A stretch of DNA of 64,000 nucleotides from a phage (PZ019086.1), one strand, 5' to 3'. Counted from the stretch's first letter, positions 3,528 to 63,368 are shown. Notes: generated by a model from the sequence alone, not told the origin. Numbers and translations: made by a program.

Positions 3528-3807
3528 ATTGAATCACCTTCAGTTGACGTTTTAGTTCTTTTATCATTTCTTCGTTCATCGCAATATAAAGATCGCGTAA
3601 AGCAGGCTTTAGCATTCCATTTATTGGGGAACTAAATGGACATACATAATCTTTTCCTACGAGCTTTTTAGTGAATTCCATATCGCAGAACTTAAATCCC
3701 GGTTCATTGGCATAAATTCCCCAATTAGTTGACATCATTTTATTGGCATATTCCAGTGCCTGGATTTGATTCATAATTCCATCAATTTGAAACTTTTTAA
3801 TATTCAT
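3511..3807 (-). CDS. Hypothetical early protein (98 aa)
   Basis: ORF with ATGA-type overlap to neighbour. Confidence 0.4.
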   Translation of the reverse strand: MNIKKFQIDGIMNQIQALEYANKMMSTNWGIYANEPGFKFCDMEFTKKLVGKDYVCPFSSPINGMLKPALRDLYIAMNEEMIKELKRQLKVIQFGQGN

Positions 3808-4268
3808 TAGTAAAGGTCCTCAGAGTAAAGTTCTTTTTCACTACCACCGCGTTCAATACGTACTTGTCCAGCATAAGTTGCAATAATCATTGCTTCTTCA
3901 CGTGTCCAATAATTACTATATTGGTCAATAAACCCTTGATCATCATCACAAACTTGCTGAGTAACTAATTGAGGTTTAACTACATCTAAAACTTCTGCCA
4001 TATCTTTAGAATAATGACGAGCACCTGGAATAACAAGAGTTCGTCCATCTTTTAATTTAAAACGGTTGGCTGCGCAAACAATTCGTCGTTGATACTTTTG
4101 GTTTTCGTCCCAATACGCAGTTTGCCAACAGATTTCAGGAACTTCTTTCAGAATATCTTCTTCTGTGCATTTATAACCATGCGCTTTAAATTTTTCAACA
4201 AGACTTTCTGGAGTTTCACGAGATAAAGGAACATTCAGCATTTTTAAACGATTAATAAATGGGTTCAT
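3807..4268 (-). CDS. Hypothetical early protein (153 aa)
   Basis: ORF in co-directional array, overlapping stop/start with neighbours. Confidence 0.45.
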
Positions 4269-4594
4269 TTAAACCATCCTTTAATACGCTGCCACAAAGT
4301 TTTCTGTTGAGCTTTGTTAACACCAATTGAGCGAATAACTGGTTGAGATTCCTGGAATTCTTTATAATCAGCAAGGTAAATTTCGTAAGCTGAATCCGTA
4401 AAGGAACTTATCGCTGCCATGAAATTATTACGAATACCTACTGGAGCATCTTTACTTTCACGAATAATCATGTATTTGCCAGTCTTAATCTTTACGATGG
4501 TTCCAAGATAAGCTCCATGGTACCAGATATCCCACCCCTCTTGAGTGGGTTCTGCACAACGACGAAGTTCATTGATAATTTCTAACTTGTTCAT
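4265..4594 (-). CDS. Hypothetical early protein (109 aa)
   Basis: ORF in co-directional array. Confidence 0.45.
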
Positions 4595-4604
4595 TATTTA
4601 TTCC

Positions 4605-5240
4605 TCACAGTTCAGATGCTACGGTGATTACTGCTTCAATGTTTTCTGCCGAGCGTTTAATGTCAAGATACACATTACCGTTTTTAGCGATTTTACATGA
4701 CATTCCGATATCAGTAAATTTCTGAATATGGTGTTCCATCATTTTGTATCCAAAAATTCGCATATTTCCGTTGTTGTTAATTTCAAAATTGCGAATTCCG
4801 TGAGTGCGTTTTTCTAAAATAGCAAGATAGTTACTGCGGTAAGTTTCAACCTTTTTAAGAACAAATCCATTTTCATCTAAAAGTTTTAACATGAAGTCTT
4901 TATCTTCTTCCATATCGGAAGTAATCTCACGAGCTTTACGAGTTGCTCGTTTTTTCAGCAGTTCCGGAGCATTTTCCTGTGCGTATAAAGTTGCTGCATT
5001 TGAAATAATATCCTGAGCTTCACCTGTAATGATTAATCCATCACCGGATTTCTCCACTAGGCCTTTTTTAATCAATACCCCAATATTACTATTAACTACT
5101 GCATTACCTAAATCTGGATGCACCTCACGAACTTCTGCAGCTGTAATGAAATCTTTCTTAGCAATGGTAATTAAAATCGCAGCAGTTTTTTCATTCAGAA
5201 CATCGTTAGAAGCTTTGATGATATAAGTTACTTTAGACAT
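4605..5240 (-). CDS. motA: Middle-transcription activator MotA
   Basis: 211 aa, same length as T4 MotA; sequence MSKVTYIIKASNDVLNEKTAAILITIAKKDF... recognised; early promoter and terminator immediately upstream. Confidence 0.85.
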   Translation of the reverse strand: MSKVTYIIKASNDVLNEKTAAILITIAKKDFITAAEVREVHPDLGNAVVNSNIGVLIKKGLVEKSGDGLIITGEAQDIISNAATLYAQENAPELLKKRATRKAREITSDMEEDKDFMLKLLDENGFVLKKVETYRSNYLAILEKRTHGIRNFEINNNGNMRIFGYKMMEHHIQKFTDIGMSCKIAKNGNVYLDIKRSAENIEAVITVASEL

Positions 5241-55861: not shown

Positions 55862-56119
55862 TTATTCCTTAATTCCTAGTACTTGTTTAAAAGTCTCGTC
55901 GTAATCAAGACTTTGACCTGTTTGTTCTTTATGTTTGTATATAATATCACTTACTTCTGATAGCATATTTTTATATGAACGAGTTAAAGCAGATTTAAGC
56001 ACGCTATATCTATCAGGAAATTTACCATGTTCATTATAATACGCTATTGCTAATTCACGGACTGCTTTTTCAGCAGTCTCCATATATTCTTTACGCTTTG
56101 TCATTTTCTTCTCGGTCAA
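55862..56119 (-). CDS. Hypothetical protein (85 aa)
   Basis: ORF. Confidence 0.4.
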
Positions 56120-56408
56120 ATCGGTGTTTGCAATGACGACATTTATAGCGAAGATTACTAGTCTGCCAATGGACTAATTGAACCTGTTCAGTACCGCATT
56201 CAGGACAATTAGGAACGTTTTTAGAAGCCCTTTCGCGACGTTCAACCATAGCCATAATGGCATCCCAAGCTGGAGGTATAAAGTCTAAATCATCGCAACC
56301 ATGAATCTTTCCACGCATTTCCAGATCGTCTTCTTCACCAGCCATAATAATTTTAATTAGACTGGAATTACTTGAAGCTGCAATATCTTCTAATAAACGC
56401 TTTTTCAT
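56091..56408 (-). CDS. Zinc-ribbon protein (105 aa)
   Basis: CPECG...CRHC motif. Confidence 0.45.
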
Positions 56409-57334
56409 TTCAATACCTCAATAGCATTACGTAAACCATTTGCTTTTGCATTAAGAGCTTTTAACAATTTGGTGTGTTCGGCAATCTGGGCTTCAACTTC
56501 AACTAGTCGAGATTTGAGGTATTCACGTTCTTCACTCATGTTATCAATCTTTTCTACTTTAGGCTCTTTTACAACTGTCTTATATGTATTAGGATTCTTC
56601 AGTTTAATTAGAATACGTGAACTGTATAACATTGAACCATTATCTTCGATTTCGTCATACATTTCTACTACGTCCATGATTTTTAACATCATGCGGAGTT
56701 TATAAGACAACGAACGAATAGTTTTGTTGTGCTTATTAATTTCTCTAGATGTCATGGTGCCGAGATTACGTGAGTAATAATAAGGAACTTGGATATTAAT
56801 TAACACTGATGAACCACCTGGCTTGTGTGTTACTTCATCAGCAATAACCCAATCCTTAACATGAACTGTATTTGTACGGTCATCGCCTGCGGTAAATAGT
56901 TTACGAGCATGCTTAAAAAGCATATTCACTTGGTCATTAAATTGACAGGCAAATTTATCAGCAAATTTAGTTTCAGGAATGGTAGATAGCCAATCAGCCA
57001 AATGGGTCTTTTTAACATCGTTAACAATAGTAAATTCAACCAAATCGGTTATAGATGTTGCAGATTTAATGAAGCTTGGCTTCATAAAGTTTTTAATGTT
57101 ATCACGAGCTACAGTAGAAGATAACATACGAGAACGTTTAAACCATTCAAGCAAATTGCCTAATGAATGAGAATAGGCGTTCTGAGTATCTTTACAGATA
57201 TGATTTTCCTGGCCAATATATTGAAGGAAATCACGAAGAATATTATTGATTACTGCTCTGTGTCCGATCTGATAATTACGGTGTTTAGCAATAAGACTGT
57301 CAAAATAATCAATATAATGTTTACGAGTTTTCAT
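56405..57334 (-). CDS. Hypothetical protein (309 aa) with C-terminal coiled-coil tail
   Basis: C-terminus [42 protein letters not shown]. Confidence 0.5.
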   Translation of the reverse strand: MKTRKHYIDYFDSLIAKHRNYQIGHRAVINNILRDFLQYIGQENHICKDTQNAYSHSLGNLLEWFKRSRMLSSTVARDNIKNFMKPSFIKSATSITDLVEFTIVNDVKKTHLADWLSTIPETKFADKFACQFNDQVNMLFKHARKLFTAGDDRTNTVHVKDWVIADEVTHKPGGSSVLINIQVPYYYSRNLGTMTSREINKHNKTIRSLSYKLRMMLKIMDVVEMYDEIEDNGSMLYSSRILIKLKNPNTYKTVVKEPKVEKIDNMSEEREYLKSRLVEVEAQIAEHTKLLKALNAKANGLRNAIEVLK

Positions 57335-57386
57335 GTTCTTCTCACTTGGTTAATGATTTATACTCCGAGCCATCCTTGGCTTTAAA

Positions 57387-58409
57387 TTACTTAATTAACT
57401 GTAAAGCTTGTTCAAGACGATCCAGGCGATTAACAGATTCTTCCCAAATCCTTTTAGCTTGCTCATATTCTTTCTGCGCTTTATTAGAAATTTCTAGAGC
57501 TTCTTTATAAGCTTTTTCTAATGCAATAACTTCTGGACGAATTTCTACCGGTTCAGGTGAATCGTCAAGACATTCCATTAGTTCCTCAAGGGTAGTTTCT
57601 TCTTTAGGAGTATTCACAATTTCTTCACATTTTTGTTGGTAAATTTCTTTATCAGTCGGTGAGTACGCACACTTTACTTCACGAAGACTAACTACAATTT
57701 TATATCCTTCCCAACCGCATATATTCTTAAAAGGATACGTATGAATATTTTCTACTGTTTCCATACAAAGTAGTGCAGTCTCTAATTGACGAGTTATAGT
57801 GCTAGCAATTGAGAAAAATTTATTAATATTCCTTTGGTTAGTTTCTGGTGTAAAAAATCCATAATTCACAAAAATAGATACTTTATTTTTATCAAGTTCA
57901 TATTCTTTTATGATAATCATATCAGAAGCCAAAGGATGAATTTGACGATAATCGCCATAACATAATTTAGAAGCTGATTTTAGAATCTGTCCTTTGAAAA
58001 GCCTGAAATTACTAATCCAACGACGAGTAAAAATATTCTCAGGGTCTTCTTTATTATTAAGATGATAAGAATTAACATCACCGAACCAATTATATCCTAC
58101 TACATCTTTGGTTCGTTTAATTTCTTTCCCAAAATTACCAAGAATATCTCGATTAACCAAATATGAAAGAAGACGAGACTCTTTAAAGGTTTTCTTGATA
58201 ACATCTTTATCTACACGGCTAGAAATTTTACGAATTTCATGAATAAATTTAACAGAAGAAACAATACTTGCATCAACACTATTGAGCCATTGATTGATAA
58301 TAGAAATAACGCTATTTTGGCCAAACATCGGTATAGCTTTATCATCAATAACGCTATTGAATGATTTGATATATTCGTTACGAGTCATATTAATCTCCTC
58401 AGATACCAC
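57387..58409 (-). CDS. Hypothetical protein (340 aa) with C-terminal coiled-coil tail
   Basis: C-terminus ...EKAYKEALEISNKAQKEYEQAKRIWEESVNRLDRLEQALQLIK. Confidence 0.5.
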   Translation of the reverse strand: MVSEEINMTRNEYIKSFNSVIDDKAIPMFGQNSVISIINQWLNSVDASIVSSVKFIHEIRKISSRVDKDVIKKTFKESRLLSYLVNRDILGNFGKEIKRTKDVVGYNWFGDVNSYHLNNKEDPENIFTRRWISNFRLFKGQILKSASKLCYGDYRQIHPLASDMIIIKEYELDKNKVSIFVNYGFFTPETNQRNINKFFSIASTITRQLETALLCMETVENIHTYPFKNICGWEGYKIVVSLREVKCAYSPTDKEIYQQKCEEIVNTPKEETTLEELMECLDDSPEPVEIRPEVIALEKAYKEALEISNKAQKEYEQAKRIWEESVNRLDRLEQALQLIK

Positions 58410-58428
58410 ATCCTTGTGGCAAAGTAAA

Positions 58429-59451
58429 CTAGTTCAGTGCATTTAGTGCATTGTTCAGTTTAGAACGTTGCTTTGTCAGATTTTGAACCCTTGACTGAGC
58501 TTGTTCTAACACCTTTTCAGCTTCTAGCACTTCATTGGTCGCTTTAACTAATTCAGCATCTACTGCTTTAAGAGACTTCTCAATCGCGTCAGCGTGCCAT
58601 TTTTCTACAGGTTTAAAATTTGAATTTTCAGTAGGAAGAAAACTCACTTTATTAAGTTTACATGCATCTATATTGCTTGAGCTATACATCCAAAATTTAG
58701 GATCGTTTGATAAGTAATTGGATAAATTTAAGTTATCTTGCACTTCCTGCTTTTTCTCTTGCGGGACTTCGTCCTTTCTCAAAAAATCGTATTTAAATGA
58801 AACGATCATATCAAGTTCATACGTTGTTGTGTCTAATTTAAATCGTTCAAAACGAGGTAAAATCTTAGATTGAACAGCAGCAACAACATCCATATACTTA
58901 AATGCTTCTGTCAACTGTGATTTAAGGCATTCACAAATTGAAAGAGAATTTTTTGTATTAGGTTTAAAGCTAATTCGTGCAGTTCTGTTATTTTCTTTTA
59001 ATGGTCTTACTTCCATCTGAAGAGTATAACCATCAAATTTCAGGTTCTTTAAGTTAATATCAGAACCTTTCAATCGACTCGCAGTTGATAAAATTTGCTT
59101 TAATTGTCTACGGAACAGAGCAATAAATCTCCATTCAATACGATAATGATTTGGATTGAAAAATCCAGATGATAAATCGACCTTACTTTGACCAACGCCT
59201 TGAACAAATAGAGGATTTTTATAATCAATAGTTTTACAGAAATCTGTGAGCTGCTCACGAGCCGTCATTTGTGTAATATACCCCGCTTTACTAAAATTAC
59301 TCACCCATTCACTGCTATTTAGATATTTAAAGTGATGAATAGCACGATTAACTTTATCAGGGTCTAAATTATTTTCACACAAAAATGTCATAACATCACG
59401 AGTATCGCTGGCATTACGAACCATATCTTCAATTTGAGAACGAGTTTTCAT
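58429..59451 (-). CDS. Hypothetical protein (340 aa) with C-terminal coiled-coil tail
   Basis: C-terminus ...AELVKATNEVLEAEKVLEQAQSRVQNLTKQRSKLNNALNALN. Confidence 0.5.
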   Translation of the reverse strand: MKTRSQIEDMVRNASDTRDVMTFLCENNLDPDKVNRAIHHFKYLNSSEWVSNFSKAGYITQMTAREQLTDFCKTIDYKNPLFVQGVGQSKVDLSSGFFNPNHYRIEWRFIALFRRQLKQILSTASRLKGSDINLKNLKFDGYTLQMEVRPLKENNRTARISFKPNTKNSLSICECLKSQLTEAFKYMDVVAAVQSKILPRFERFKLDTTTYELDMIVSFKYDFLRKDEVPQEKKQEVQDNLNLSNYLSNDPKFWMYSSSNIDACKLNKVSFLPTENSNFKPVEKWHADAIEKSLKAVDAELVKATNEVLEAEKVLEQAQSRVQNLTKQRSKLNNALNALN

Positions 59452-59459
59452 GGTGTTCC

Positions 59460-60365
59460 TTAAGATTTAAGTAAATCAACAATTTTAATTAACTTTTCAC
59501 GCTCAGATTTAGCTTTACTACTCAATCCAGATAGTCTGAAAATTTCATCGTCATACTGTTGAATAGAAATATTCAGCTCTTCAATCTGCTTATTAAAATA
59601 ATCAATTTGTTCAGAATGTTTTTCGTTACTGCGAACTGGTACAGGTTTTGTAGGCAATGTAGTTGAACTGGATTCATTCGGGCGATAAATCAAAATGCAA
59701 TTTGAACCAATCGGGCATTTAGCACCAGACGTATATTCTAATGTTCCAGCTTCTTTTAAAACTTCAAAAGCTAAACAGAGATGATGCCCCATATTAACAT
59801 AATCTGTAGAGTGAGCTCTGATGTAATAATCATCTCCACGAATACTAAATTTAAAGCATTTAAGGTCTTCTGTATTATTGGTCTTAAAAATCATTTGTTT
59901 ATCTAGACCTTTAGCTAATCGAGCGCCTAATGCTAATAATCGTCGTTGATTTTTCCACAAATCCGCAATCATTTGATCGAATGATAATTTTGGCATTAGT
60001 CGACCATAAAGGTCATATCCTTTATTATAATTACGAAGGATTTCACTCGCGTTAATACGAGACAATGCTCCAATTTTATTAAGGGCTTTCATAATGCGAT
60101 TAGATAAACTCATTCCAGATCCGTTTGTTCGCTGTAAATGTTTTTCTAATCCAAATCCAATATCAACTTTAAACTTATCTAAAATTTCAGCATGAACATC
60201 TCTGTCGATAACATTCAAATCCAAAGTTGGGTTAAATCTATGAAAAAATTTATCTGGCTCTCCACGACGAAATACAGTCCATTCATTCATCATTTTTTTA
60301 TTAACTAATGATTTAATTACTGCATTGACATTATTAATTACTACTGACATATTTTCCTCACTCAA
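59460..60365 (-). CDS. Hypothetical protein (301 aa) with C-terminal coiled-coil tail
   Basis: C-terminus ...EQIDYFNKQIEELNISIQQYDDEIFRLSGLSSKAKSEREKLIKIVDLLKS. Confidence 0.5.
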   Translation of the reverse strand: MSEENMSVVINNVNAVIKSLVNKKMMNEWTVFRRGEPDKFFHRFNPTLDLNVIDRDVHAEILDKFKVDIGFGLEKHLQRTNGSGMSLSNRIMKALNKIGALSRINASEILRNYNKGYDLYGRLMPKLSFDQMIADLWKNQRRLLALGARLAKGLDKQMIFKTNNTEDLKCFKFSIRGDDYYIRAHSTDYVNMGHHLCLAFEVLKEAGTLEYTSGAKCPIGSNCILIYRPNESSSTTLPTKPVPVRSNEKHSEQIDYFNKQIEELNISIQQYDDEIFRLSGLSSKAKSEREKLIKIVDLLKS

Positions 60366-60814: not shown

Positions 60815-61342
60815 TTATGCGAGTACCGTCTTTAACCGTTCTTCAAACTTCCGAAGAGTATTTTGGCGTTCAGCTCTTTGCTTTTTGTAAGTTTCAATAC
60901 GCTCTGAAATGAGAGTGTATCGTTCATTTACTGATTCTTTCATAAAATCAGGAATTTCACGAGAAGCTTTAATCTCGTCAAATTTATCAATAACAGCTTG
61001 CTCTTCAGCAATTAAGTTATCATACATTAAAATATCTTTCTTGATGAACTCAATATCTTCTTGAGTTACACTAGATAATTTAGATGCTTTATCCTTTTTG
61101 TACTGTTCGTTAGTATCACGAGACCAATGTAATGTACGATTTTTATTCGTATTTTTGTAAATTTCTACAATACCGATCTCATCAATAATAACGATCCAAT
61201 TCCAACGGGATTTGTAAATTTGTCCTCCATCAACAGTGATTTCACCTCCGATTGAGATGTCGTTAAAGAACTTGCTTTGCGCTTCAGATTTAAATTTACC
61301 ATCGTTGTAATTTACCAAGTTGAAAATATCTTTAGCGTTCAT
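60815..61342 (-). CDS. Hypothetical protein (175 aa) with C-terminal coiled coil
   Basis: SD GGAGG; downstream of early promoter 61371..61400. Confidence 0.5.
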   Translation of the reverse strand: MNAKDIFNLVNYNDGKFKSEAQSKFFNDISIGGEITVDGGQIYKSRWNWIVIIDEIGIVEIYKNTNKNRTLHWSRDTNEQYKKDKASKLSSVTQEDIEFIKKDILMYDNLIAEEQAVIDKFDEIKASREIPDFMKESVNERYTLISERIETYKKQRAERQNTLRKFEERLKTVLA

Positions 61343-61370: not shown

Positions 61371-61400
61371 ATAGTACCACAGAGGAACAGTCTTGTAAAC
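61371..61400 (-). promoter_or_regulatory. T4-type early promoter
   Basis: GTTTAC / 18 nt / TGG-TACTAT on minus strand; near-copy of the 8420..8449 module. Confidence 0.5.
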
Positions 61401-61806: not shown

Positions 61807-62793
61807 TTATTTCAGAAGAGTAACCTCAGCAATTTCTTCCCAACCGTTTTTGTCGGTCATAATAAAGTCAGCAAGATAAAGAGCAGTACGCAGTGAAACA
61901 TTGCGTAAACGGTTAACATTAACTTTCATCCATGATAATGCTTTATAAGTTTCTTCATCAGAAAGACCGCGCTTTTGCATCATATCAGTTGAAAGAATAA
62001 CATCTTCAACCCTGACCATAATTTCTTCATTAGTGTGAACACCCAAATCTAAATAAACTGAGCGGGACACTAATGCTTGTAAATGTGGAGCAAGTTTAGT
62101 ACCACGGTCTAATTCGCGGTCAATGTCAACGTTTGTGATAAAAACAATCGTTCCTTTAAATTCAAACTCACGGTCAATGCCTTTTTCTTCTAAGTAAGAA
62201 GATGCAGTGCTCCAGCAGACTTTACGGGTCTCTCCAGTGTCCAGAGCAGCTTTTAGAAGATTAAGAATGTCCATATCAGAGAAAACATCCACATCATCAA
62301 TCAAAAGGACAGAATTCTCTTCACGATTATTCCAAAGCTGTTCATAAAGACCAATACCAGAGATTTTACCGTTAATGCTTTTATATTCAATGTATCCATT
62401 ATCATTTGCTTTATTTAAAGCTTTATCTAAAGAATACGTTTTACCAATACCTGCTGCGCCAGAGATAATCAATGAACGAATATTTCCATTAATAATACCA
62501 TTCGTCATCATTCCCATAACATTAAATCTTTTATTAATGCGGGTTTTCATATCTTCATATGATTCTTTAACTTCTTCAACTTTTACACCATCATATGAAA
62601 TATCTGATTTGTAAACCCAAACACCGCGACGTTTACCGTCAATTTCAACAAAAACTTTACCATCTCCTTGTGCATCTACCGGAGCATTATCTGGGAACCA
62701 TTCGCCTAAGAGCTCAAAAGTTCCAGAGATTTCTTTACCGAAGTAGATACCCTTATTGATAGTTACAGTTTTCATTTTATTCTCCAATTTCAC
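61807..62793 (-). CDS. P-loop NTPase of unknown function (328 aa)
   Basis: Walker A GAAGIGKT and Walker B LLIDDVD. Confidence 0.55.
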   Translation of the reverse strand: MKLENKMKTVTINKGIYFGKEISGTFELLGEWFPDNAPVDAQGDGKVFVEIDGKRRGVWVYKSDISYDGVKVEEVKESYEDMKTRINKRFNVMGMMTNGIINGNIRSLIISGAAGIGKTYSLDKALNKANDNGYIEYKSINGKISGIGLYEQLWNNREENSVLLIDDVDVFSDMDILNLLKAALDTGETRKVCWSTASSYLEEKGIDREFEFKGTIVFITNVDIDRELDRGTKLAPHLQALVSRSVYLDLGVHTNEEIMVRVEDVILSTDMMQKRGLSDEETYKALSWMKVNVNRLRNVSLRTALYLADFIMTDKNGWEEIAEVTLLK

Positions 62794-62844
62794 ATTTGTT
62801 TTGATAGGGTAATAGTATCACACTACTACCCTACTGTAAACAAT

Positions 62845-63108
62845 TTATTTTAATGTTCGCCAAATTTTTACTGCTTCGCGACGAGATACTTCTACAGCTC
62901 CAAGTTCTACGGCTTTTTGGCGGCGGCGCGCGTGTAAGTCATAATGTTTAATGCGTTTATCTTGAAACCAAGAGCGTTTCATTCCTATTGCTTCTGCCAT
63001 TTCATGAAGCTCTTCAATATCTCCATCAGTGAACATATGACAATTTTTAGTTGGATGACCGCGAAGTTTCCATCCATGATTCATTAAAACATCTACGTAA
63101 ACTGTCAT
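62845..63108 (-). CDS. Hypothetical basic protein (87 aa)
   Basis: ORF. Confidence 0.45.
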   Translation of the reverse strand: MTVYVDVLMNHGWKLRGHPTKNCHMFTDGDIEELHEMAEAIGMKRSWFQDKRIKHYDLHARRRQKAVELGAVEVSRREAVKIWRTLK

Positions 63109-63254
63109 TGATTCTGCTCCAAATATGTTTCTATAATTTTCTGAGCGAGATAAACTGCGTTATCTTCAGTTGCATCTTCTAAGAAATTTTCAAAACAAGC
63201 TGAAATCTCTTCTGTGTCAATCAACTTTTTTACTTCAATTAACGTAGTTTTCAT
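63105..63254 (-). CDS. Small acidic ORF (49 aa), not in ORF track
   Basis: Manual translation MKTTLIEVKKLIDTEEISACFENFLEDATEDNAVYLAQKII...; downstream of early promoter 63289..63318; ATGA overlap with next gene. Confidence 0.3.
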   Translation of the reverse strand: MKTTLIEVKKLIDTEEISACFENFLEDATEDNAVYLAQKIIETYLEQNQ

Positions 63255-63288
63255 TTTATTCCCCAAATCCACATCAGTTGATAGTTGT

Positions 63289-63318
63289 ATAGTACCATAA
63301 AGCTTTATGCTTGTAAAC
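63289..63318 (-). promoter_or_regulatory. T4-type early promoter
   Basis: GTTTAC / 18 nt / TGG-TACTAT; near-copy of the 5282..5311 module. Confidence 0.5.
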
Positions 63319-63348
63319 CGTTTTGTGAAAAAATTTTGAAATAAAAAA

Positions 63349-63366
63349 GGGAGCCCGAAGGCTCCC
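63349..63366 (-). terminator. Terminator hairpin
   Basis: GGGAGCCCGAAGGCTCCC followed by U-rich tract; near-copy of the 5343..5362 module. Confidence 0.6.
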
Positions 63367-63368
63367 TA

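Follow-up and report, generated by a model that had tools for sequence, protein, structure and literature searches.

In the window analysed here, a stretch of 64,000 nucleotides (nt) of phage DNA (PZ019086.1), four adjacent genes on the minus strand between positions 56405 and 60365 correspond to nrdC.3, nrdC.4, nrdC.5 and nrdC.6 of phage T4. A slight preference is given to the reading that nrdC.3 to nrdC.6 form a tandem array of diverged paralogs encoding an oligomeric anti-defence family. The paralogy and common architecture of the four genes are held to be very likely. Each copy consists of an alpha+beta head of about 220-280 residues, a flexible linker and a heptad-repeat helix of 45-60 residues, with structural models covering nrdC.5 and nrdC.6.

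Common architecture of nrdC.3 to nrdC.6

A first-pass annotation of the window had described the globular heads as unrelated-looking, a description that the comparisons overturn. nrdC.3 and nrdC.4 belong to a single PHROG (phrog_1435), and their relatives to a single Pfam family (PF26897, Phage_T4_Y04OP; membership read from precomputed assignments on nrdC.4 homologs and on a natural nrdC.5/nrdC.3 hybrid). BLASTP aligns the two with 27.5% identity over 160 residues, the only link that plain BLASTP returns among the window proteins. With family alignments built from six genomes (T4T, VR25, SP18, RZ, Shf125875 and IME08), hhalign joins nrdC.3 to nrdC.4 (probability 97%, E = 1e-10) and nrdC.4 to nrdC.5 (probability 75%, E = 2.5e-5), in both cases collinearly over the head, and nrdC.5 is placed as a remote relative. 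In the joint alignment of the three, an N-terminal T-R and one Phe are invariant and a C-terminal L..A...L(K) motif is kept. Run on the whole protein library, the profile of this alignment finds each of the three families again. At the level of sequence profiles, the paralogy of nrdC.3, nrdC.4 and nrdC.5 is well supported.

The paralogy of nrdC.6 to these three is probable. It is joined to the family because of bridging sequences, a matching order of structural elements and a common Foldseek match. Searched against 1.84 billion representative proteins, the joint nrdC.3/4/5 profile matches P0251 (E = 3.5e-6) and P0253 (E = 1.5e-4). In a database of only 134 sequences, to which the E-values of that search refer, the nrdC.6 profile in turn matches P0251, P0253 and CC31 p082 (28.6 bits for the last), and the first non-family matches of the nrdC.3/4/5 profile are nrdC.6 proteins; P0251 also finds CC31 p082 by tblastn. 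Distant members of this kind came from exhaustive search, a word-indexed protein search giving almost only close relatives. Compared directly with the other families by hhalign, nrdC.6 aligns at two helices that had also been noticed by eye: LSR.NA..L.NY.K, and NQRRLLALGARLA.G opposite FR...IL..ASRL.G.

The AlphaFold2 models of nrdC.5 (predicted local distance difference test, pLDDT, 66.7) and nrdC.6 (pLDDT 75.6) present their elements in the same order: an N-terminal helical part, a long helix, a strand-strand-helix-strand-strand unit, a linker and a C-terminal helix. In nrdC.5, helices extend to residue 128 and the strand-strand-helix-strand-strand unit spans residues 144-219. A Foldseek search of predicted viral structures returns the Klebsiella phage Mineola protein A0A2Z4QAR2 for both models (E = 5.4e-8 for nrdC.5 and 6.1e-4 for nrdC.6). 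Further matches are uncharacterised proteins of 300-370 amino acids (aa) from T4-like phages of Erwinia, Serratia, Pectobacterium, Aeromonas, Acinetobacter, Enterobacter and Yersinia.

The heptad tails that had been proposed for all four genes are confirmed. In each, a single heptad register with hydrophobic a and d positions runs without a break through 45-56 residues, and hydrophobic periodicity peaks at 3.5 residues in every case, with z scores against shuffles between 2.4 and 4.1 (Table 1). A home-made heptad score was calculated over the last 35 residues of all 71 open reading frames (ORFs) in the window that reach 100 aa. nrdC.3 to nrdC.6, together with nrdC.8, all fall within the top six, a ranking with a chance probability of about 5e-7 for five pre-named ORFs. 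The longest run of this score in nrdC.5 covers residues 288-339. Structure prediction agrees with the heptad pattern in the two modelled proteins. The nrdC.5 tail is a single helix that follows a disordered stretch with pLDDT below 50 (residues 225-279), and the nrdC.6 tail consists of two helices that follow a linker at residues 228-246. The last 45 residues of nrdC.3, nrdC.4 and nrdC.5 align without gaps. Homology of all the tails is not claimed, as a hidden Markov model (HMM) of the nrdC.3/4/5 tails misses those of nrdC.6 and nrdC.8. The other comparably high C-terminal heptad score in the window (0.52) belongs to a plus-strand ORF at 124-1008 that is cut by the window start.

The same kind of tail had also been attributed to the nearby 175 aa ORF, nrdC.8, and this attribution is not confirmed. 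Its C-terminal half is helical and charged and is broken by proline, the heptad z score is weak (1.5 overall, 1.7 over the last 42 residues), and no homology to the other tails is detectable. As a fifth member of the family nrdC.8 was rejected (hhalign E of at least 0.04, tail HMM E above 1, no match in the searches with the family profiles). The only pointer the other way is a weak Foldseek match (E = 9.7e-4) of the nrdC.5 model to a Klebsiella phage KPV15 protein of 175 aa, possibly NrdC.8.

Gene identity, distribution and divergence

The window belongs to a Tequatrovirus, with about 96% nucleotide identity to known phages. A megablast search with the 3.96 kb block finds 657 phage records (463 with at least 80% coverage), nearly all of them T4-like phages of Escherichia, Shigella or Yersinia; Shigella phage TB004 and Escherichia phage KIT06 are closest, at 96% identity. 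The four co-directional ORFs are present as first described, with longest forms of 309, 340, 340 and 301 aa, and the suggestion that they represent the nrdC.x block of T4-like phages is borne out. The third ORF has 94.9% identity to T4T nrdC.5 over 97% of its length (tblastn), equals the T4T gene in length and lies between nrdC.4 and nrdC.6. The assignments of nrdC.3, nrdC.4, nrdC.6 and nrdC.8 follow the T4T annotation, gene order, sizes and matching flanks, nrdC.5 being the gene placed directly by tblastn. In the T4T mapping, nrdC.7, nrdC.8, nrdC.9 and nrdC.10 lie upstream of the block and nrdC.2, nrdC.1 and nrdC downstream; in the window, a membrane-like ORF of 133 aa and the 175 aa ORF stand upstream of the four genes.

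The probable lengths of the products of nrdC.3, nrdC.4, nrdC.5 and nrdC.6 are 309, 333, 340 and 296 aa. The ATG starts of nrdC.4 and nrdC.6 are preferred because ribosome-binding sites, the T4 annotation and the family N-termini (MTR.EYI, MS...) agree: a GAGGAG Shine-Dalgarno sequence stands 7 nt before the first, and GAGG precedes the second. The lengths noted earlier thus hold for the first and third genes, and those of the second and fourth are likely shorter.

Table 1. Features of the nrdC.3-nrdC.6 locus in the window. Coordinates count from the first nucleotide of the window.
Feature	Coordinates	Strand	Description	Basis
nrdC.3 ortholog	56405-57334	minus	309 aa	ORF; phrog_1435, E = 4.5e-116; T4 gene map
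nrdC.3 heptad tail	56408-56542	minus	residues ~265-309; a/d residues IMRLLVIHLLALIL	z 2.4; tail score 0.56
nrdC.4 ortholog	57387-58388	minus	333 aa from ATG 58388 (likely start)	phrog_1435, E = 1.1e-168
nrdC.4 longest ORF	57387-58409	minus	340 aa, GTG start at 58409	
nrdC.4 heptad tail	57390-57530	minus	last ~47 aa	z 4.1, reached by no shuffle
nrdC.5 ortholog	58429-59451	minus	340 aa	Pfam DUF7235 (PF23882), 397.7 bits
nrdC.5 long C-terminal helix/heptad tail	58435-58611	minus	residues 281-339	AlphaFold2; z 3.6
nrdC.6 ortholog	59460-60350	minus	296 aa from ATG 60350 (likely start)	phrog_2257, E = 3.4e-151
nrdC.6 longest ORF	59460-60365	minus	301 aa, TTG start at 60365	
nrdC.6 C-terminal helices	59466-59627	minus	residues 247-277 and 283-300 (301-aa numbering); a/d residues NHIFILIYILSARLVL	z 3.2
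nrdC.2	56091-56408	minus	105 aa, zinc-ribbon	weak zinc-ribbon Pfam matches
nrdC.8	60815-61342	minus	175 aa, helical C-terminal half	phrog_2274, PF26901
T4-early-type promoter match	61371-61399	minus	TTTACA, 17 nt spacer, TACTAT, TG; upstream of nrdC.8	consensus match
T4-early-type promoter match	62812-62840	minus	hexamer pair as at 61371-61399; upstream of nrdC.10	consensus match
T4-early-type promoter match	63289-63317	minus	hexamer pair as at 61371-61399; upstream of ORF 63105-63272	consensus match

The genes are conserved unknowns rather than new genes, as had been supposed: they occur in more than 600 phage records and belong to Pfam and PHROG families of unknown function. The nrdC.5 ortholog matches PF23882 over residues 1-340, far above the gathering cut-off of 30 bits, and is also covered by phrog_2351; all 109 nrdC.6 homologs carry PF26899 (Phage_T4_Y05B). 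The earlier failure to recognise a catalytic motif was repeated, as Pfam, NCBIfam, PADLOC and PDB profile searches returned neither such a motif nor a known domain. In Pfam, NCBIfam and PADLOC the matches are sub-threshold and none is to an informative domain. On the tails they are to generic coiled-coil families, and residues 30-86 of nrdC.3 weakly resemble the SAM-like domain at the N-terminus of tyrosine recombinases. PDB profile matches to designed helical proteins and mitofusin (E about 0.01) were taken as helix bias. Many GenBank records call nrdC.3, nrdC.4, nrdC.5, nrdC.6 and nrdC.8 'thioredoxin'; the proteins show no thioredoxin domain, and the label appears to have been propagated from the locus name nrdC.

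As far as profile searches detect it, the family is restricted to T4-like phages (Straboviridae). Exhaustive search with the nrdC.3/4/5 profile gave only 23 clusters at E of 1e-3 or less among the 1.84 billion representatives, several of them fragments, and all placeable matches are from T4-like phages. The copy number is four in Tequatrovirus and three in Mosigvirus, Gaprivervirus and Dhakavirus, the last two being without nrdC.3; a single copy was detected in Karamvirus CC31 and in Jiaodavirus KP179.

By sequence comparison, the heads diverge fast and the tails are kept much more constant. Tail identity exceeds head identity in 24 of 27 ortholog comparisons, and the three exceptions include a nearly identical pair from T4 and a close nrdC.5 relative. 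Across other genera and divergent lineages the count is 20 of 22. Divergent nrdC.4 orthologs are 57-75% identical in the tail and 25-51% in the head (75% and 25% with P0127, 64% and 25% with P0237). For nrdC.6 orthologs of other genera the ranges are 56-71% and 29-54% (60% and 29% with Mosigvirus), and nrdC.5 has 64% tail and 36% head identity with P0239. nrdC.8 is much more conserved than the four paralogs, with at least 95% identity in about 500 records and 68-85% in other genera.

Tequatrovirus has two alleles of nrdC.3. About 358 records carry the window type (90-99% identity); the allele of T4, T2 and RB32 is only about 60% identical to it, the flanking genes being about 95% identical. 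The window allele is nearer to the Mosigvirus gene (75-79% identity), and the sequence pattern looks like allelic replacement between genera. A natural deletion variant is present on four Tequatrovirus contigs, among them a 167 kb metagenome contig (L009, positions 3570-4900) and L010. In this variant nrdC.4 is removed, a 299 aa ORF fuses nrdC.5 residues 146-272 to nrdC.3 residues 129-309 with the junction at non-equivalent paralog positions, and nrdC.5 is frameshifted to a 115 aa stub. A further candidate recombinant, P0255 (173 aa; L011, 120-641), joins an unrelated 120-residue N-terminus to an nrdC.5-type tail (87% identity across the final 53 residues). Its metagenome contig, at 803 nt, is too short to decide between a genuine domain swap and a chimera of assembly.

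At its downstream end the array meets nrdC.2, which encodes a small protein with a zinc ribbon (CP.C ... CR.C); its start codon and the stop codon of nrdC.3 overlap (ATGA). In all six genera nrdC.2 lies directly downstream of the last family member, with the ATGA overlap in four. The member in that position varies: T4 and Mosigvirus have nrdC.3 there, Gaprivervirus and Dhakavirus have nrdC.4, and CC31 and KP179 have their single copy. The arrangement suggests that nrdC.2 and the adjoining family member may be translationally coupled and are possibly a functional pair.

A proposed anti-defence role and its alternatives

The documented function within the array is that of T4 nrdC.5. A T4 clone with deletions lost plating on E. 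coli ECOR17, deletion of dsr1 from ECOR17 restored plating, and plasmid-borne dsr1 shields MG1655 from the deleted clone. nrdC.5, the only gene reported as tested, restores plating of the T4 deletion mutant in trans on E. coli with ECOR17 dsr1, and is termed an early gene (Srikant, Guegler and Laub, eLife 2022; PMC9391042). The anti-defence role guessed at in the first-pass annotation is thereby supported for nrdC.5, to which the statement that function is unassigned no longer applies; for nrdC.3, nrdC.4 and nrdC.6 that statement holds. The nrdC.5 allele of the window can be expected with good confidence to retain anti-Dsr1 activity. Dsr1 is a SIR2 NADase with a TPR sensor, and the sensor domain is reported to recognise phage major capsid proteins (2026 preprint, PMC12803255).

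In the proposed mechanism, the heptad tail would make each protein a homo-oligomer, and an oligomerising role of the tail, judged from its sequence, is reasonably favoured. The oligomer would show several heads that bind a host immune protein and block it stoichiometrically. For NrdC.5 the target would be Dsr1, engaged early, before the late capsid protein appears, in a 'bind sensor, block trigger' scheme modelled on the action of DSAD1 against DSR2. DSAD1 of phage SPbeta binds the DSR2 sensor region and competes with the tail-tube trigger. As a phage-encoded inhibitor of a SIR2-NADase protein of abortive infection, it is a functional analogue. DSAD1 targets DSR2, whereas NrdC.5 counters Dsr1, and no DSAD1 or DSR2-complex chain was returned by PDB-wide searches with both family profiles. 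nrdC.3, nrdC.4 and nrdC.6 would act likewise against other defence proteins or alleles. Anti-defence roles, documented for nrdC.5 and inferred for these three, are for the latter a tentative proposal, a little nearer to doubt than to acceptance. If the paralogs do face different defences, this would account for the expanded gene set, for copy numbers that differ between genera and for the replacement of one nrdC.3 allele by another.

The genetic setting is that of an accessory region. The four genes are dispensable on laboratory E. coli: T4 nrdC.3 to nrdC.8 are all listed as non-essential in the HIDEN-SEQ transposon-type mapping (supplement of 10.1101/2025.11.20.689424), and a T4 nrdC.1-6 fragment can be deleted (PMC9825161). 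The natural nrdC.5/nrdC.3 hybrid and a copy number that ranges from one to four between genera also speak for accessory status. Of the genes that neighbour the block, nrdC.1 inhibits Septu and gp49.2 inhibits OLD.

Several observations weigh against an oligomeric anti-defence family. nrdC.3, nrdC.4 and nrdC.6 have no significant HIDEN-SEQ fitness effect under the conditions that could be read (10.1101/2025.11.20.689424), and no functional study of nrdC.3, nrdC.4, nrdC.6 or nrdC.8, or of the Pfam accessions, was found in the searchable literature. (Where nrdC.8 is mentioned, in a single paper, it is classed from its name alone as a nucleotide reductase.) That NrdC.5 binds Dsr1 directly is only proposed, and the rescue could be indirect. 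Oligomerisation is read from the heptad pattern only, the tail cores are rich in Ala and polar residues, and conservation of the tails beyond the needs of a plain coiled coil could mark a specific partner. For nrdC.6, the direct hhalign comparison with the other members is weak (E = 0.006, probability 6%) and the tail goes undetected by the tail-only HMM of nrdC.3/4/5. The models of nrdC.5 and nrdC.6 are only moderately confident (pLDDT 67 and 76).

A role of the tails other than self-association is one way to read their conservation. They could, as the first-pass annotation proposed, dock all paralogs on a common partner, of host or phage origin (NrdC.2, for example), or pair with one another, in either case giving one multi-headed complex. 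This is an unlikely arrangement, although the excess of tail over head conservation, the gap-free alignment and shared terminal motif of the nrdC.3/4/5 tails, the adjacency and common direction of the four genes and the placement, in six genera, of a family member immediately before nrdC.2, with stop/start overlap in four, all favour it. An obligatory four-part complex is not required because some genera carry one family member (CC31 and KP179) and nrdC.3 is missing from Gaprivervirus and Dhakavirus. Plasmid-borne nrdC.5 alone rescued a phage whose deletions include nrdC.5, a clone that may still carry some of the neighbouring genes; the nrdC.6 tail is missed by the profile of the other tails; and adjacency to nrdC.2 may just reflect the conserved gene order of the region. 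It is improbable, too, that the tail is a portable docking module by which heads that evolve fast and can be exchanged are tied to a single constant partner, perhaps NrdC.2 or a host factor, a reading compatible with the higher conservation of tails than of heads, the P0255 tail on an unrelated N-terminus and the nrdC.3 alleles, whose heads differ with the tail retained.

The family might instead act on ordinary host machinery (transcription, RNA decay, the membrane or the nucleoid) and not on immune proteins, in which case the Dsr1 rescue may be indirect, for example through a changed timing or level of the trigger or through NAD metabolism. Early expression and dispensability, as in many T4 host-takeover genes, fit such a role, as does the weak recombinase-like similarity of the nrdC.3 head, and the action of NrdC.5 on Dsr1 is known from a plating phenotype alone. 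Fast head divergence, allele replacement and copy gain and loss are nevertheless unexpected for conserved host targets, the sole phenotype on record is confined to a single defence gene, and the flanking nrdC.1 and gp49.2 are defence inhibitors; on balance a host-takeover role is given little credence. That the tails are generic amphipathic helices of independent origin, on four unrelated neighbouring genes, the picture implicit in the first-pass annotation, is largely refuted and deserves almost none. It draws on the single BLASTP link between nrdC.3 and nrdC.4, the three separate Pfam families and the weak direct profile score of nrdC.6, and it is opposed by the profile links among nrdC.3, nrdC.4 and nrdC.5, the bridging sequences that tie in nrdC.6, the identical order of predicted secondary structure and common Foldseek matches of the nrdC.5 and nrdC.6 models, the conserved N- and C-terminal motifs and a tail ranking far beyond chance.

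Surroundings of the array and relation to known genes

The early-gene context suggested for the block remains plausible: early-type promoter matches lie upstream, the block is free of MotA boxes and nrdC.5 is an early gene (PMC9391042). The promoter calls (Table 1) are consensus matches and not functional proof. The match at 61371-61399 is the likely source of transcripts that would read into the block. No match to the MotA-box middle promoter was found between 54 and 64 kb, and elsewhere in the window such boxes are enriched (12 against 2.1 expected). Just downstream of the nrdC.11 stop, at 63348-63367 on the minus strand, a GC-rich hairpin with 8 perfectly paired bp (AGGGAGCC TTCG GGCTCCCT) and a run of T behind it resembles a terminator, after which the early-type match at 63289-63317 follows.

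In T4T, nrdC.10 and nrdC.11 are separated by no more than a 114-nt gap; in the window, two small ORFs lie between them on the minus strand (62845-63272). The larger encodes a DUF4031 protein of 87 aa (Pfam E = 8e-22), and the smaller, of 55 aa, is without a match. In CC31 a DUF4031 gene also adjoins nrdC.10. nrdC.10 itself (61807-62793, minus strand) contains a P-loop and has weak sub-threshold matches to STAND/AAA NTPases (nSTAND3, AAA_16, AAA_22). The gene thus encodes an uncharacterised NTPase in a part of the phage genome rich in anti-defence genes.

The genes are already catalogued and the nrdC.5 phenotype is published, so that no new kind of system is described here. The window gene at 58429-59451 is the ortholog of T4 NrdC.5 (Y05A; DUF7235, PF23882), which it matches end to end in Pfam, and the window proteins are likewise full-length members of PF26897 (nrdC.3 and nrdC.4), PF26899 (nrdC.6) and PHROGs 1435, 2351 and 2257. 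The T4 NrdC.5 publication (PMC9391042) gives the phenotype only, without structure, mechanism or family relationship. Pfam and PHROG hold three separate families of unknown function, which are here proposed to form one superfamily. What is new is this unification, with its common architecture and conserved tail; neither the paralogy of nrdC.5 with nrdC.3, nrdC.4 and nrdC.6 nor the head-linker-tail build was found in the searchable literature. nrdC.1 (85 aa) and gp49.2 (106 aa) come from the same early region and are also non-essential early accessory genes, each directed against one defence system. They differ from the array in being unrelated in sequence, much smaller and outside any paralog family.

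T4 is the best-studied phage. The four genes fill nearly 4 kb of its genome without an attached mechanism, and one of them defeats the Dsr1 sirtuin defence. Their unification makes nrdC.3, nrdC.4 and nrdC.6 concrete counter-defence candidates, and the common build offers a simple experimental design of head swaps and tail removal. As a Straboviridae-wide family without a match to a solved fold, it is a reasonable target for structure determination, and it could help to explain host-range differences between therapeutic T4-like phages. If the improbable portable-module reading of the tail were true, T4-like phages would carry a platform that swaps new heads, directed against new immune sensors, onto a constant tail.

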